From Pseudomonadota bacterium (lineage in GTDB: Bacteria > Pseudomonadota > Alphaproteobacteria > G022571365): a DNA stretch of 64,000 bases. The stretch is from contig JACZXZ010000007.1 of the NCBI GenBank assembly GCA_022571365.1, forward strand, positions 3,366 through 67,365. The letters are read 5' to 3'. The notes beneath the pieces are model-generated. The model had not been told where the DNA came from. It saw only the letters and a program-made list of their open reading frames with translations, and searched no databases. Positions 5,890 to 53,629 of the stretch are shown here, piece after piece. Each line of letters begins with the position of its first letter. The stretch's first letter is position 1. The position numbers were made by a program, and so were the translations under genes.

Positions 5890-6870
5890 ATGACCGTTCT
5901 GGTAACCGGCGCGGCCGGGTTCATCGGCTTTCATGTCGCGACGGCGCTCTTGAAGCGCGGCGAGCGGGTGATCGGGGTCGACAACCTGAACGACTACTAT
6001 GATGTGGCGCTCAAGCAAGCCCGTCTGGACGGGCTCGCCCGCCACGACAGCTTTGCCTTCCACCGTATCGACATCGCCGACCAGGCGGCGATGGAAGGCC
6101 TCGCCGGGACCTACCCCGACATCACCCGGGTGGTGCACTTGGCCGCCCAGGCGGGGGTGCGGTACTCGCTGACCCATCCCCAGGCCTACATCCACGCCAA
6201 TCTCGAAGGGCATTTCGCGGTGCTCGAGACCTGCCGCCGGCTCGACCGGCTCGAGCATCTGGTCTACGCCAGCTCGTCCACGGTCTATAGCGGCATCACC
6301 AGGCTGCCGTTCTCGATCGAGGAGCGCGTCGACCGGCCGATCTCCCTCTACGCCGCGACCAAGATCTCCGGCGAGCTGATGAGCTATTGCTACAGCCACC
6401 TCTACGGGCTGCCCATGACCGGCTTGAGGTTCTTCACCGCCTACGGGCCCTGGGGCCGGCCCGACCTGTCGGCCTATATCTTCACCCGCCAGATCCTGGC
6501 CGGGGAGCCGATCCAGGTGTTCAACCACGGCGACATGAAGCGGGACTTCACCTATATCGACGACGCGGTGGCCGGTGCGGTGGCTGCCCTCGACCGCCCG
6601 CCGGCGGCCCGGGACGGGGCGGCGCCGCACCGCCTCTACAACCTGGGCAATCACCGGAGCGAGCCGTTGATGCGCTTCATCCAGGTGATCGAGAAGGCGG
6701 TCGGCCGCAAGGCCAAGATCAAGCTGGAGCCCATGCAGCCCGGCGACGCCAAGGAGACCTTCGCCGATATCACCGCCAGCCGGCGCGACCTCGGCTTCAA
6801 CCCGACCACCAACATCGACGAGGGCATCCCCAAGTTCGTGGCCTGGTTCCGCGACTACCACGGGGTCTAG
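5890..6870 (+). CDS. NAD-dependent epimerase/dehydratase (UDP-glucuronate/UDP-sugar 4-epimerase-like)
   Basis: ORF 5821..6870. ATG at 5890 gives MTVLVTGAAGFIGFHVA... (Rossmann GxxGxxG). YxxxK catalytic motif present (YAATKISGE). Confidence 0.85.
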   Translation: MTVLVTGAAGFIGFHVATALLKRGERVIGVDNLNDYYDVALKQARLDGLARHDSFAFHRIDIADQAAMEGLAGTYPDITRVVHLAAQAGVRYSLTHPQAYIHANLEGHFAVLETCRRLDRLEHLVYASSSTVYSGITRLPFSIEERVDRPISLYAATKISGELMSYCYSHLYGLPMTGLRFFTAYGPWGRPDLSAYIFTRQILAGEPIQVFNHGDMKRDFTYIDDAVAGAVAALDRPPAARDGAAPHRLYNLGNHRSEPLMRFIQVIEKAVGRKAKIKLEPMQPGDAKETFADITASRRDLGFNPTTNIDEGIPKFVAWFRDYHGV

Positions 6871-6874
6871 CTGG

Positions 6875-6958
6875 TAGCTGTCAGCCATTAGCCGCTAGCT
6901 ATTAGCCGTTAGCCATTAGCCGTTAGCCGTTAGCTATCAGCGTTCAGCCCTCAGCCTC
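6875..6958. repeat. 12 tandem copies of heptamer (T/C)AGCC(G/A)T
   Basis: Read directly: tagctgt cagccat tagccgc tagctat tagccgt tagccat tagccgt tagccgt tagctat cagcgtt cagccct cagcctc. Confidence 0.85.
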
Positions 6959-12405: not shown

Positions 12406-13596
12406 ATGAAGATCGCCATAGTGAGGGAACGGCGCCGGGGCGAGCTGCGCGTCGCGGCCTCGCCCGACACCGTGAAAAAGCTCACCCGTTTGGGCGCCGA
12501 GGTGATCGTCGAGACGGGCGCCGGCGAGGGTGCCGCCTTTCCCGACGAGGCCTTTGTTGAGGCCGGCGCGACCATCGCCGAAGAGGAGAAGGCGGCGCTA
12601 GAGGAAGCCGACATCGTGCTCAAGGTGCAGCGGCCGCTGGCCGCGGCCGAGGGCGGCCCGGACGAGCTCGCGCTGATGAAGCCGGGCGCCATCCTGATCG
12701 GCTTGCTCGCGCCCTACGCCGACCACGGCGCCGCAGAGGCCTATGCCGAGCGCAGGCTCACGGCCTTTGCGCTCGAGCTCATGCCGCGCATTTCCCGGGC
12801 CCAGTCCATGGACGCGCTCTCGTCCCAGTCGAACCTGACCGGCTACCAGGCGGTGATCGACGCGGCGGCGGTCTTCGGCAGCGTCATGCCGATGATGATG
12901 ACGGCGGCGGGCACGGTCCCGCCGGCCCGGGTGTTGGTGCTCGGCGCCGGGGTCGCCGGGCTTCAGGCGATCGCCACGGCCCGGCGGCTGGGGGCGGTGG
13001 TCTCGGCCTTCGACGTCCGCCCGGCCGTCAAGGAGGAGGTGGAGAGCCTGGGCGCGGTGTTCATCGAGGTGGAATCGGCGGAGGCGGCCGAGACCAAGGG
13101 CGGCTACGCCCGGGAGATGAGCGCGGACTACCGGCGGCGCCAGACCGAGCGGGTCCACGAGATGCTCAAGACCCAGGACATCGCCATCTGCACGGCGCTC
13201 ATTCCGGGCCGACCGGCGCCGGTTTTGATCACCGGGGCGATGGTCAGGGACATGAAGCCGGGCTCGGTCATCGTCGACCTCGCCGTCAATGAGGGCGGCA
13301 ACTGCGAGCTCTCGGAGCCCGGCAAGGTGGTCCGCAAACACGGGGTCACGATCCTGGGCCATGAAAATGTGCCGAGCCGCGTCGCCACCGACGCCAGCGC
13401 GCTTTACGCGCGCAACCTGCTCAACTTCCTGACCCCGTTCTTCGACGCGGAAACGGGAGAGTTCAAGATTGATTGGGAGGACGAGATCGTCAAGCAAACC
13501 CTGCTCACGCGGGACGGTGCGATCGTTCGCCCGGCACCGGCCGGTAAAGGGGCGCCGACCGGTAAAGGGGCGCCGACCGGTAAAGGAGAGTCGTGA
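12406..13596 (+). CDS. pntAA: NAD(P) transhydrogenase alpha subunit, part 1 (dI domain)
   Basis: 396-aa ORF with alanine-dehydrogenase/PNT fold and Rossmann [23 protein letters not shown]-terminal GKGAPT repeats. Confidence 0.9.
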
Positions 13597-24612: not shown

Positions 24613-24772
24613 ATTAAGTTCTCGTACGCGAACTTGGATGGTCTGGCCGCGCTCGATATTAGCCCTTTGATGGTGCCGATCCAACACCCGCTCGGCTTCG
24701 AGGCTGCGGGGCGCGGCCGCGTCGTCCCTCTCTCCGGCGGATCGGGCGCGGGGGCAGGGGCCGCCGTCACCC

Positions 24773-24853
24773 GCCGTCACCCGCCGCGCGCAAGTTCATG
24801 CCGTCACCCGCCGCGCGCGAGTTCATGCCGTCACCCGCCGCGCGCAAGCTCAT
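24773..24853. repeat. 27-bp tandem repeat x3 (gccgtcacccgccgcgcgcaagttcat) plus 10-bp partial copies upstream
   Basis: Copies at 24773-24799, 24800-24826 and 24827-24853, 1-2 mismatches each. Third copy contains the rlmB stop and last six codons. Confidence 0.85.
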
Positions 24854-25797: not shown

Positions 25798-25883
25798 GGA
25801 GGGGTGCCCGAGCGGCCAAAGGGAGCAGACTGTAAATCTGCCGGCGTACGCCTACGTAGGTTCGAATCCTACCCCCTCCACCA
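25798..25883 (+). tRNA. tRNA-Tyr (anticodon GTA), class II with long variable arm, CCA encoded
   Basis: ggaggggtgcccgagcggcc...gactGTAaatc...ggttcgaatcctaccccctccacca. Acceptor ggagggg/cccctcc. Confidence 0.9.
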
Positions 25884-25919: not shown

Positions 25920-25993
<74 letters not shown>

Positions 25994-27425: not shown

Positions 27426-27501
27426 AGGAGTGTAGCTCAACGGGTAGAGCACCGGTCTCCAAAACCGGGGGTTGTAGGTTCGAGTCCTGCCACTCCTGCC
27501 A
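27426..27501 (+). tRNA. tRNA-Trp (anticodon CCA), CCA end encoded
   Basis: aggagtgtagctcaacgggtagagc accggtctCCAaaaccgg ... ggttcgagtcctgc cactcct g cca. Confidence 0.9.
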
Positions 27502-44339: not shown

Positions 44340-45173
44340 ATGCGATCCGGACTCATCGCACAGAAGGTCGGGATGACCCGCGTCTTCACCGAAGACGGCA
44401 CGCACGTGCCCGTGACCGTGTTGAAGATCGACGGTTGCCAGGTGGTGGCGACCCGCACCTCGGAGCGCCACGGCTATACGGCCGTCCAGCTCGGGTTCGG
44501 TGGAGCCAAGGTCAAGAACGTGACCAAGCCCATGCGCGGCCATTTCGCCAAGGCCAAGGTTGAGCCCAAGCGGAAGCTGGCCGAGTTCCGGGTCAGCCCC
44601 GACGCGCTGATCGAGGTCGGCGCGGAGCTCACGGCCGACCATTTCGTCTGCGGCCAGTATGTCGATGTCGCCGGGACGGCCATCGGCAAGGGGTTTGCCG
44701 GGGTCATAAAACGCCATGGGTTCCGGGGCTTGGGGGCCTCCCACGGCGTCTCGGTGAGCCACCGCAAACAAGGCTCGACCGGCCACAGCCAGGATCCGGG
44801 CAAGGTCTTCAAGGGCAAGAAAATGGCCGGCCATATGGGCGACATCCGGGTCACTACCCAGAACCTCCAGGTCGTTTCCACCGACGCCGAAAACGGCCTC
44901 ATCCTGATCCGGGGCGCGGTGCCGGGCGCCAAAGGCAGCTACGTGCTGGTCACCGATGCCCGGAAGAGACGGCTGCCCGAGGGCGTGCCGTTCCCAGCCG
45001 GCCTGCGCCAGACCGGCCAGCCGGCGGCGGCGGACAAGAGCGCGGCTTCCGCGCCGGCCGCTCAGGCGTCCGATGAGCCGGCAGCGGAGGCCGAAGAGAC
45101 GGCGGCGGAGGCCGAAGAGACGGCGGACGACTCCACCTCGGATGCGGCCGGGGTTCCGGAGGCCAAGGATTGA
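44340..45173 (+). CDS. rplC: 50S ribosomal protein L3 (with acidic Ala/Glu-rich C-terminal extension)
   Basis: [16 protein letters not shown]... 277 aa. C-terminal ~60 aa low-complexity with a 21-bp x2 repeat. Confidence 0.92.
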
Positions 45174-49231: not shown

Positions 49232-49600
49232 ATGATTCAGATGCAGACCATTCTGGGAGTCGCGGACAACTCCGGTGCCCGCAAGGTGCAGTGCATCAAG
49301 GTGCTGGGCGGCTCCAATCGCAAGACCGCCTCGATCGGCGACGTCATCGTCGTCTCGGTCAAGGAGGCGATCCCGCGCGGCCGCGTGAAAAAGGGCGAAA
49401 TCCACCGCGCCCTGGTGGTTCGCACGGCTAAGGAGATTCGCCGACCCGACGGCAGCGCCATTCGCTTCGATCGCAACGCCGCGGTGCTCATCACCACCCA
49501 AGGCGAGCCCATTGGCACGCGCATTTTCGGCCCCGTCACCCGCGAGCTCAGGGCCAAGCGCTACCTGAAAATCATCTCGCTCGCGCCGGAGGTGTTGTGA
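49232..49600 (+). CDS. rplN: 50S ribosomal protein L14
   Basis: [28 protein letters not shown]... Confidence 0.95.
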
Positions 49601-49923
49601 CCGCCGTCAAGATGAAAATTAAGAAAGGCGATAGCGTGATCGTCATCACCGGCAGGGACAAGGGCAAGATGGGCGACGTGCTGAAAGTCCTGCGCCGCGA
49701 GAACCGGGTCATCGTGCAGGGCGTGAACGTGGTTAAGCGGCATACGCGGCCGGGCCCCAAGCAAGCCGGTGGCATTGTCGAGAAGGAGCTGCCGATCCAG
49801 GTCTCCAACATCGCTCTTGTCGACCCGGACTCCGACGCGCCGACCCGGGTCGGCTACAAGTTCCTCGAGGGGGGCCGCAAGGTCCGCTTCGCCCGGCGGT
49901 CCGGCGAGATCATCGACCGTTAG
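49597..49923 (+). CDS. rplX: 50S ribosomal protein L24
   Basis: GTG 49597 overlaps rplN stop, with GGAGG 4 nt upstream. Alternative ATG 49612 ([14 protein letters not shown]...). KOW motif present. Confidence 0.85.
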
Positions 49924-49934
49924 GCGGACGCGCC

Positions 49935-50474
49935 ATGCCGAGACTCAAGGACCACTACGACACGACGGTAAAGCCGGCCCTCGTGCAGCAGTTCGGTTAC
50001 AAGAATCCCATGCAGGTGCCACGGCTCGAGAAAATCGTTGTCAATATGGGGATCGGCGAGGCCGTCCAGGACGCCAAGAAGATGGAAGCCGCGGTCGGCG
50101 ACATGGCACTGATCACCGGCCAGAAGCCCATCGTGATCAAGGCCAAAAAGTCGGTCGCCACGTTCAAGTTGCGCAAGGGCATGGCGATCGGCTGCAAGGT
50201 GACCTTGCGGGGGACGCGAATGTATGAGTTCCTCGATCGCCTGATCACCGTCGCCTTGCCGCGGGTGCGCGACTTCCGCGGTCTGTCGAACGGGAGCTTT
50301 GACGGGCGTGGCAACTTAGCCCTCGGTCTCAAGGAACAGATCGTGTTTCCCGAGATCGATTACGACAAGGTCGATGAGATCCGTGGCATGGACGTCATCA
50401 TCGTCACCACGGCCAAGACCGATGCTGAAGGCTTGGCGTTGCTCAAGGGTTTCGACATGCCGTTCGGAAGCTGA
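49935..50474 (+). CDS. rplE: 50S ribosomal protein L5
   Basis: [33 protein letters not shown]... Confidence 0.95.
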
Positions 50475-50492
50475 TTTGAGGAGGTCTCAGAC

Positions 50493-50798
50493 ATGGCAAA
50501 GGTGAGTGCTGTCGAGAAAAATAGGAAACGCAAGCGCCTGGTTGAGAAATACACGGCCAAGCGTGCCCGGCTGAAGGCGATCGCGTGCGACCTGTCGCTG
50601 CCGTCCGAGGAGCGTTTTCTCGCGCGGCTGAAGCTGGCCAAGCTGCCGCGCAATTCCTCGCCGGTCAGGGTGCGCAACCGGTGTGATCTCACCGGCCGTC
50701 CGCGCGGCTTCTACCGCAAGTTCAGGTTATCGCGCATTGCGCTCAGGGAGCTTGCCAGCTCCGGACAGATCCCCGGCATGGTCAAGTCGAGCTGGTAG
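50493..50798 (+). CDS. rpsN: 30S ribosomal protein S14
   Basis: [20 protein letters not shown]... Confidence 0.93.
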
Positions 50799-50925
50799 GC
50801 GAGGTCTCAAGCCATGACTATGAGCGATACCGTGGGGGACATGCTGACGCGTCTCAGAAGTAGGCGAGGTTTCAAGCCATGACTATGAGCGATACCGTGG
50901 GGGACATGCTGACGCGTATCAGAAA
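50796..50925 (+). repeat. 65-bp tandem duplication (2 copies, 3 mismatches) spanning the rpsN stop, SD and first 14 codons of rpsH
   Basis: Copy 1 50796-50860, copy 2 50861-50925. Both begin with 'taggcgaggtNtcaagccatgactatgagcgataccgtgggggacatgctgacgcgt'. Confidence 0.85.
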
Positions 50926-51277
50926 TGGTCAGCGCGCGCACAAGCCGGCCGTGAGCTCTCCGGCCTCGAATCTGCGTGCCAACGTGCTCGAAGTGCTGAA
51001 GCGGGAAGGCTATATTCGCGGCTATTCCCGCCATGAAATCCGGACGGGGATCTCCGAGCTGCGAATCGAGCTCAAATACTACGAGGGCGAGCCCGTGATT
51101 AAGGAGATCACCCGGGTCTCCAAGCCCGGCCGCCGCGTCTATTCCAAGATCAAGGACTTGCCGTCGGTCTATGGCGGGCTCGGCATCGCCATCCTGTCGA
51201 CGCCGCGCGGGGTAATGTCGGACAGCGAGGCGCGTACCGCCCATGTCGGCGGCGAGGTCTTGTGCCGGGTATTTTAA
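50879..51277 (+). CDS. rpsH: 30S ribosomal protein S8
   Basis: [22 protein letters not shown]... Confidence 0.93.
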
Positions 51278-51286
51278 GGAAAGGCC

Positions 51287-51820
51287 ATGTCGCGCATCGG
51301 TAGTAATCCGGTCGAAGTGCCGGGCGGGGTCGAAATCCAAGTCTCCGGCCAGACGGTGACCGCCAAGGGCAGGCTGGGTGAGCGCAGCGTGACCCTGGTC
51401 GACGGAATCACGGTCAGGCTAGAGGACAACAAGCTGTGGCTCAAGCCGCGCGACGAGTCGAAGCGGGCGCGGGCCATGTGGGGCACCTCCCACAGCATGG
51501 TCGACAATCTGGTGACCGGCATCGGCGAAGGGTTCACGGCCACCTTGGAGATCAGCGGCGTGGGTTATCGCGCCGCCGTACGGGATAAGACGCTCCACCT
51601 GCAGATCGGATACAGCCACGATGTCGCGTATCCGGTCCCCGAGGACATCGCCATCACCTGCGAACGCCCGACCTTGATCTCGATTACCGGCGCGGACAAG
51701 CAGCGGGTGGGACAGGTGGCCGCCGAAATCCGTGCGCTGCGTAAGCCGGAGCCGTACAAGGGCAAGGGCATCAAGTATGAGAACGAGATCGTCCGCCGCA
51801 AGGAAGGCAAGAAGAAGTAG
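51287..51820 (+). CDS. rplF: 50S ribosomal protein L6
   Basis: [28 protein letters not shown]... Confidence 0.95.
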
Positions 51821-52954: not shown

Positions 52955-52972
52955 GGCCTGGTGGAGGAACCC

Positions 52973-53629
52973 GTGAAGCTGAACGAACTATCGGACAAAC
53001 CGGGGGCCCGCAAGGCGCGCACGCGCGTCGGGCGCGGCATCGGCTCGGGCAAGGGCAAGACCTCGGGGCGCGGCCACAAGGGCCAGAAGTCGCGCAGCGG
53101 TGTTGCCATCAGGGGCTTCGAAGGCGGGCAGATGCCGATCTATCGCCGGCTGCCGGGGCGCGGCTTCAAAAATCCCTTCGCCAAACGCTTCCAGGTGGTC
53201 AACCTCGACCGGCTTCAACGGGCGATCGAGGCCGGCAAGCTGGATGCCAACAATCCGGTGACGGTCGAGGCCATGCGCGCGGCCGGTCTGGTGCGCAGGG
53301 TGCGCGACGGCGTGCGGCTACTTGCAAAGGGCGAGCTCAGGTCCAAAGTAACGATTGAAGTCACCGGCGCTTCCAAGGCCGCGGTGGCCGCCGTGGAGAA
53401 GGCCGGGGGCAAGGTCGTGCTGCCCGAACCCGCGCCTTCCCCCGACAAGCCCAAGGCCGGCAGGGGCGCCGAAGTCGAGCCCAAGGACGATAAGGGCGCC
53501 GAAGTCGAGCCCAAGGACGGCAAGGGCGCCGAAGTCAAGCCCAAGGCCGGCAAGGACGCCGAAGTCAAGCCCAAGGCCGGCAAGGACGCCGAAGTCAAGC
53601 CCAAGGACGATAAGGGCGCCGAAGCTTAA
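52973..53629 (+). CDS. rplO: 50S ribosomal protein L15 with ~70-aa repetitive Lys/Glu-rich C-terminal extension
   Basis: GTG 52973 with GGAGG 5 nt upstream. [28 protein letters not shown]... Core ~150 aa followed by (AEVxPKxGKG) x5 encoded by 30-bp tandem repeats. Confidence 0.88.

Follow-up and report, generated by a model that had tools for sequence, protein, structure and literature searches.

The junction between rpsN and rpsH in the DNA stretch analysed here (64,000 nucleotides, referred to as the window) carries a tandem duplication of 65 nt, which repeats the translation initiation region of rpsH and thereby creates a short decoy ORF ending on the authentic rpsH start codon. The duplication is probably a recent and tolerated event which keeps the translational coupling between the two genes, is nearly neutral or mildly costly to its host, and is now drifting and decaying. 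The window holds the str-S10-spc-alpha ribosomal-protein gene cluster, and the positions of the relevant genes and sequence elements are compiled in the table below. Its exact S8 protein was found in 42 collection blocks and corresponds to NCBI record MCH7540581.1.

Table. Genes, repeat copies and initiation elements at the rpsN-rpsH junction (positions refer to the window).
Feature	Position	Strand	Remarks
rplE	49935-50474	+	Pfam-confirmed
rpsN (ribosomal protein S14, 101 aa)	50493-50798	+	PF00253, E 5.7e-28; stop codon TAG at 50796-50798
Copy 1 of the 65-nt unit	50795-50859	+	Last base before the rpsN stop, TAG, 15-nt spacer with SD, decoy rpsH codons 1-15 plus 1 nt
SD 1 (GAGGU)	50801-50805	+	8 nt ahead of the decoy ATG (50814)
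Copy-specific difference 1	50806 vs 50871	+	C (ancestral) at 50806; T (derived; rpsH SD-AUG spacer) at 50871
Decoy upstream ORF	50814-50882	+	22 codons plus UGA; out of the rpsH frame
Copy-specific difference 2	50853 vs 50918	+	C (derived; CTC Leu, decoy codon 14) at 50853; A (ancestral; ATC Ile, rpsH) at 50918
Copy 2 of the 65-nt unit	50860-50924	+	Non-functional TAG copy, working SD, true rpsH 5' end
SD 2 (GAGGU) for rpsH	50866-50870	+	Inside the decoy ORF; 8 nt upstream of the rpsH AUG
AUGA stop/start overlap	50879-50882	+	Decoy UGA at 50880-50882, rpsH AUG at 50879-50881
rpsH (ribosomal protein S8, 132 aa)	50879-51277	+	PF00410, E 7.7e-47
rplF	51287-51820	+	Pfam-confirmed

Two repeat finders recognized the segment as a period-65 tandem repeat of 2.0 copies, 63/65 identical and with a TRF score of 246, in which the copies adjoin head to tail without any spacer and with a start-to-start spacing of 65. 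A match of this kind cannot be of chance origin. The repeated unit includes the first 46 nt of rpsH, and 46 nt is also the maximum length over which the copies match perfectly. Microhomology is absent at the boundaries of the duplication, since the left flank reads ...CTG followed by G and the unit ends on ...GAA followed by A, and neither boundary base matches. The preliminary description of this DNA had already noted that the segment is present twice, which is confirmed, but had counted three mismatches between the copies. In the true register there are two, and the third, located at the unit boundary, arose because the frame used in that description (50796-50925) was shifted by one base.

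The intercistronic distance between rpsN and rpsH amounts to 80 nt, compared to gaps of at most 22 nt or overlaps between the other genes of the operon. Because 65 mod 3 = 2, the ORF starting in copy 1 quits the S8 frame at the junction of the copies and terminates on the rpsH start; a back-up UGA in the decoy frame is available at 50886-50888. The predicted duplex of SD 1 with the anti-SD sequence has an energy of -6.7 kcal/mol, and the value for SD 2 is identical. These elements had also been recognized in the preliminary description, and its assignments of an SD and an ATG in copy 1, of a 22-codon ORF and of the termination of this ORF within the ATGA at the start of rpsH all agree with the sequence, down to an exactly matching translation of 50814-50882.

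Contigs encoding exactly the S8 or S14 protein of the window were collected from public assemblies, and their junctions were compared. The same duplication is present in 12 of them (L001-L005, L007, L009, L010, L196, L198, L199 and L202), in which both copy-specific differences recur, except for a G at the equivalent of position 50853 in L004. A diverged version of the duplication occurs in two NCBI metagenome contigs (L094 and L096), bringing the total to 14 resolved contigs. They derive from about seven sources (CHEN21, LIUR22, ZHOU22, ZHAO22, BAIS20, ERZ272674xx/ERZ27267525 with MEGAHIT k141-style names, and GCA_0442321xx/4xx), which comprise both contig-level and scaffold-level assemblies and represent different samples, studies and assemblers. 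Moreover, Ile14 is invariant across 16/16 aligned S8 variants of the cluster, so the Leu14 codon of copy 1 does not represent an rpsH strain variant. The preliminary description had considered the repeat as a potential assembly or sequencing artefact of a genome that is truly single-copy, an option which is extremely unlikely in the light of these data. It is true that short-read assemblers can mishandle repeats, that scaffolds L006 and L008 exhibit N-gaps exactly within the repeat, and that two contigs from the Logan source (L200 and L201) terminate inside copy 1, but such breaks are also what is expected of a genuine repeat. An artefact would hardly reproduce the same junction and the same SNPs in 14 contigs from independent sources, De Bruijn assemblers are unable to make junction k-mers that are missing from the reads, the divergence of copy 1 in L094 and L096 is not expected of an artefact, and close relatives assemble cleanly as single-copy. 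As judged from the assembled contigs, the duplication thus appears to be genuine, with an assembly artefact effectively excluded.

A view on the relatives of the window indicates how narrowly the duplication is distributed. The S8 cluster at 90% identity consists of 24 members. The duplication is found in the contigs whose S8 is 100% identical to that of the window (L001-L010 and others) and, with a decayed copy 1, in those with the 99% identical variant P0126 (L094 and L096). The variants with 98% (L097-L102, L109-L113 and L205), 97% (L105-L108) and 95% identity (L091) are all encoded at single-copy junctions with a gap of 15 nt. In the comparison with related genomes which the preliminary description had called for, these closest sister strains as well as 158 distant loci thus turned out as single-copy. 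The latter consist of 79 GTDB species representatives (S8 73-81% identical), in which the rpsN-rpsH gaps range from 7 to 21 nt, and of 79 relatives from JGI metagenomes (S8 at most 80% identical, identified in a protein-based scan) with gaps of 9-19 nt, which were used as negative controls. TRF applied to 160 related loci covering 725 kb did not detect a tandemly duplicated gene start, and an exact 50-nt DNA pattern gave 0 matches in the JGI metagenome contigs. The nearest labelled relatives in a scan of GTDB genomes are Stellaceae, Defluviicoccus and Rhodospirillales MAGs; a habitat look-up via the BioSample accession found no papers. Because all carriers share one and the same junction, which does not coincide with any microhomology, a single duplication event is indicated. 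On the strength of these sequence comparisons, the duplication is to be regarded as derived, lineage-specific and young, and as belonging to one species-level lineage of an uncultured alphaproteobacterium.

The age of the event may be estimated from the copies themselves. The single-copy relatives, which read GGTCTC or GGTCCC around the equivalent of position 50806, give C as the ancestral state there, at unit position 12, and A as that of 50918, at unit position 59, indicating that each copy has gained one substitution after the duplication. Third-codon-position divergence over rpsH-rpsE shows a mean of 0.9% and a maximum of 1.8% within the duplication clade, and values of 2.3-3.2% between this clade and the single-copy lineages; the divergence between copy 1 and copy 2 is 2/65 or 3.1%. 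These values fit a duplication event shortly after the divergence from the single-copy strains, followed by drift at an approximately neutral rate, although the estimate is very imprecise with only two differences. In the sub-lineage of L094 and L096, which branched off early in the duplication clade as judged from the Val54 state of its S8, the ATG of copy 1 has been converted to AGG and three further substitutions have been acquired in the same copy, whereas copy 2 is unchanged. Positive selection on this copy 1 was considered, because four substitutions per 65 nt are found there versus 1-2 per 705 nt in the flanking genes, but was rejected, since the difference is suggestive without being significant given the uncertainty of the background rate. 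The derived T of position 50871 is missing in L006, L094 and L096. As a separate observation, the first base of decoy codon 14 (equivalent to 50853) is an unusually variable single site among very close strains, being represented by A in L006, L094 and L096, by C in the window type and by G in L004, which correspond to Ile, Leu and Val codons, respectively. The upstream ORF as such is not conserved, because its ATG is lost in L094 and L096 and the ORF is absent from all other lineages compared.

Two contigs, L203 and L204, carry the rpsH haplotype of the duplication clade and yet are single-copy, and their rplF haplotype matches or resembles that of scaffold L006. They could be either revertants of the duplication or recombinants, and this combination of features indicates a recombining population in which the duplication is polymorphic, being kept in 14 of the 16 junction-resolved contigs with the rpsH haplotype of the clade. 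Note that rpsH starts with GTG rather than ATG in these two contigs (GCCGTGACTATGAGC; L203:143 and L204:143, from JGI 3300032104 and ENA ERZ25043467). The possibility that L006 represents a three-copy allele was dismissed as unproven, because its N-gap is located within the repeat and its downstream haplotype matches that of the single-copy contigs L203 and L204; this scaffold may consist of overlapping contig ends or be chimeric.

The arrangement of the elements suggests how the duplication may be tolerated. Ribosomes finishing rpsN would restart on the decoy 15 nt downstream, or bind directly to SD 1, translate the 22 decoy codons and terminate at the UGA of the AUGA overlap, with the second UGA following two codons later. 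They would then reinitiate at the rpsH AUG, aided by SD 2 located 8 nt upstream; decoy translation with subsequent reinitiation had already been suggested in the preliminary description and is a reasonable assumption. By this route, a chain of short-gap coupling would be kept up despite the intercistronic distance of 80 nt and the output of S8 would be little changed, while the cost would consist in a useless 22-residue peptide produced at the level of a ribosomal protein; the mutation would have spread through the lineage and would now be subject to drift. Translational coupling within the operon is suggested by the short gaps or overlaps between its other genes, which are the hallmark of this mode of expression. 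A random 65-nt insertion would be expected to break the coupling chain, but the duplicated unit brings along its own SD and AUG and should leave it intact, which in turn would render the mutation nearly neutral. In E. coli, translational coupling to rplE extends over the genes from rpsN to rplO (PMC3616713). A precedent for overlapping uORFs acting via translational coupling has been demonstrated experimentally in the alphaproteobacterium Sinorhizobium meliloti (PMC13285730). The duplication is perhaps not entirely neutral with respect to expression, because the initiation region of rpsH is predicted to be opened more easily in the duplicated allele than in the single-copy one (12.2 vs 15-16 kcal/mol). 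In addition, Pro-UGA-C forms the end of the decoy, and termination in this context is poor in E. coli. A ribosome stalled at the end of the decoy would cover the rpsH start; a C-terminal proline can indeed stall termination in E. coli, although this effect appears to be species-dependent (PMC7246954).

Some of these features may also be read as signs of a function, namely that the duplication has been retained by selection because the decoy tunes the synthesis of S8. It might do so by making S8 less dependent on the translation of rpsN, by keeping the rpsH initiation region opened, or by throttling it through slow termination at the Pro-UGA, which lies over the rpsH start. In E. coli, the deletion of perfect tandem repeats about 100 bp long occurs at roughly 1e-5 per generation, and in view of such a rate the persistence of the duplication in most of the clade throughout its diversification could hint at retention by selection. 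This argument is tempered by the perfect match between the copies extending over 46 nt only, and the deletion rate of E. coli may not be that of this organism. The lower predicted opening energy and the clean coupling junction formed by the AUGA overlap together with the double UGA are in accordance with such a role, and uORF coupling and occlusion of ribosome binding sites are real phenomena in alphaproteobacteria (PMC13285730). Nevertheless, selection for the decoy is an unlikely explanation, since L094 and L096 dispense with the decoy ATG and exhibit four substitutions in copy 1 but an unchanged copy 2, single-copy alleles occur on the same rpsH haplotype, nothing similar is seen among the single-copy loci of sister strains and more distant relatives, which number about 180, the RNA exhibits no significant structure (z = 0.11), and the divergence of the copies fits a neutral clock. 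In its most novel form, which is likewise unlikely, this reading would make the duplication a newborn regulatory uORF, in which a selected and translated relay of 22 codons would shift the dependence of S8 on upstream translation or on mRNA structure. If true, the birth of a uORF would have been caught in the act, derived from the initiation region of the main gene itself and located in a core ribosomal-protein operon.

Two further readings were considered. The preliminary description had proposed that autoregulation by S8, which represses the spc operon in E. coli (PMC3616713), might be altered by the duplication, meaning that the duplicated 5' region of rpsH would be bound by S8 as an authentic site or as a mimic of one. 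This proposal is unsupported and appears very improbable, because the operator in E. coli overlaps the start of rplE rather than that of rpsH and such RNAs are reported to be narrowly distributed to Gammaproteobacteria (PMC3616713), whereas the host is an alphaproteobacterium and the feature is located between rpsN and rpsH, away from rplE. Rfam did not report a match at the gathering threshold, and a search of 49500-51400 with E values up to 10 gave chance-level matches only; across the ribosomal-protein cluster, no known ribosomal-protein leader RNA was recognized at the gathering threshold applied to the whole window. Single and duplicated alleles fold no better than shuffled controls (z = -0.85 for the single-copy junction and z = 0.11 for the duplicated junction of 181 nt), and neither this 181-nt fold nor the Rfam search up to E = 10 revealed a stable hairpin with an internal loop mimicking helix 21 of 16S rRNA; furthermore, the decoy start is lost in one sub-lineage. 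A scan for promoters and terminators identified none in the repeat, and a leader-peptide transcription attenuator was rejected as a candidate because 50795-50925 contains no terminator-like element; two terminator-like sites are located elsewhere, at 50556-50571 on the minus strand and at 51250-51267. Finally, the C-to-T exchange in copy 2 creates the decoy codons GGU UUC (50868-50873), at which a programmed -1 frameshift would lead to an N-terminally extended S8. The derived T at 50871 does generate a run of U in the decoy frame, and the rpsH frame is open from 50864 on, but GGU UUC is not a canonical slippery site of the type X XXY YYZ, no stimulatory structure is predicted, and the T is missing in L006, L094 and L096. 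An extension by 22 residues would also be without precedent among the homologues, those listed being all of 132 aa and the members of the cluster of 130-132 aa, which leaves this reading with practically no likelihood. The tolerated duplication with preserved coupling is therefore retained as the preferred explanation.

Tandem repeats are also present in other genes of the same cluster. The 3' end of rplO (ORF 52961-53629) contains six tandem 30-nt units with 90% matching at 53446-53624, which encode a lysine- and glutamate-rich repeat of 10 residues in a C-terminal extension of L15. The called length of L15 is 198, 208 or 218 aa among near-identical strains, and the gene is uncalled in several scaffolds; the array looks like a copy-number-variable repeat within a ribosomal-protein gene. 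Likewise, the 3' end of rplC (ORF 44340-45173) harbors a 21-nt unit repeated about three times with 82-91% matching at 45053-45126, which is located close to the C-terminal end of an L3 protein that is unusually long with its 277 aa. The cases of rplO, rplC and rpsH suggest that the ends of ribosomal-protein genes are sites where this lineage readily gains tandem repeats. TRF further reported arrays at 6868-6956 (TAGCCGT x 8.6, with super-periods of 14 and 21 nt), 13533-13586 (18-nt unit x 3) and 24761-24853 (27-nt unit x 3, 94% matching). The only gathering-level matches of Rfam in the 64-kb window are three tRNA genes on the plus strand (25798-25880, 25920-25990 and 27426-27498). Among the related loci, the rpsQ-rplN spacer of Roseospirillum parvum 930I (L060:1210-1338) contains a 47-nt unit x 2.7 with 92% matching, each copy of which holds a GC-rich palindrome of the GGGACCCCGG type, within a spacer of 240 nt at the boundary of the S10 and spc operons. 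This repeat was rejected as a comparable case, because it is of a hairpin type, resembling REP elements or terminators, and does not duplicate an initiation region.

The rpsH duplication may be regarded as a natural experiment, in which wild populations tolerate the duplication of a complete initiation region in a core ribosomal-protein operon, apparently because the coupling chain is re-established by the copy itself. Three natural alleles are available, namely the single-copy state, the duplication with an intact decoy and the duplication with a mutated decoy ATG, and this set could serve to measure how efficient termination-reinitiation is and how much fitness is lost by expressing a useless peptide at a high level. 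The case also provides a concrete example for the origination of a uORF and a warning for annotation, in that the rpsN-rpsH gap of 80 nt in this species should not be mistaken for a leader with a regulatory function. The finding does not establish a new class of biology.

In comparison with known systems, the event resembles the common and reversible short tandem duplications produced by slippage or unequal exchange, because it is arranged head to tail without a spacer, is derived relative to all outgroups and is polymorphic in its clade (L203 and L204 being single-copy, and the assemblies of L006 and L008 being N-gapped), with other variable repeats such as the 30-nt array of rplO in the same operon. 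It deviates from usual slippage duplications in its lack of junction microhomology, a feature which is typical of them but not obligatory. Further differences are that it has persisted until the copies diverged (2/65, and 4/65 in one sub-lineage), and that it repeats an entire initiation region within an operon ranking among the most strongly expressed and best conserved. The resulting gene arrangement resembles the coupled uORFs of the AUGA or UGAUG type, such as those known from S. meliloti (PMC13285730), in presenting an upstream SD and AUG, a short ORF with an overlapping stop codon, and a second SD just ahead of the main start. Unlike these, the decoy is of known origin as a frame-shifted copy of the 5' end of the main gene and is located between two coupled cistrons of a polycistronic operon instead of a 5' leader; unlike regulatory uORFs, it lacks conservation and shows no evident regulatory input. 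With the autoregulation of the spc operon by S8 in E. coli, the duplication shares the operon, the protein and the dependence of downstream genes on coupling, but the E. coli operator, an mRNA mimic of helix 21 of 16S rRNA, is located at rplE, two genes upstream, and has been described for Gammaproteobacteria, whereas nothing resembling a structured operator is found in or near the duplicated segment. The rpsH duplication thus adds one more case to each of two known categories, short tandem duplications on the one hand and AUGA-coupled upstream ORFs on the other. It is unusual because it affects a core ribosomal-protein operon, because its origin can be traced to the start of the main gene itself, and because a natural allelic series is available.
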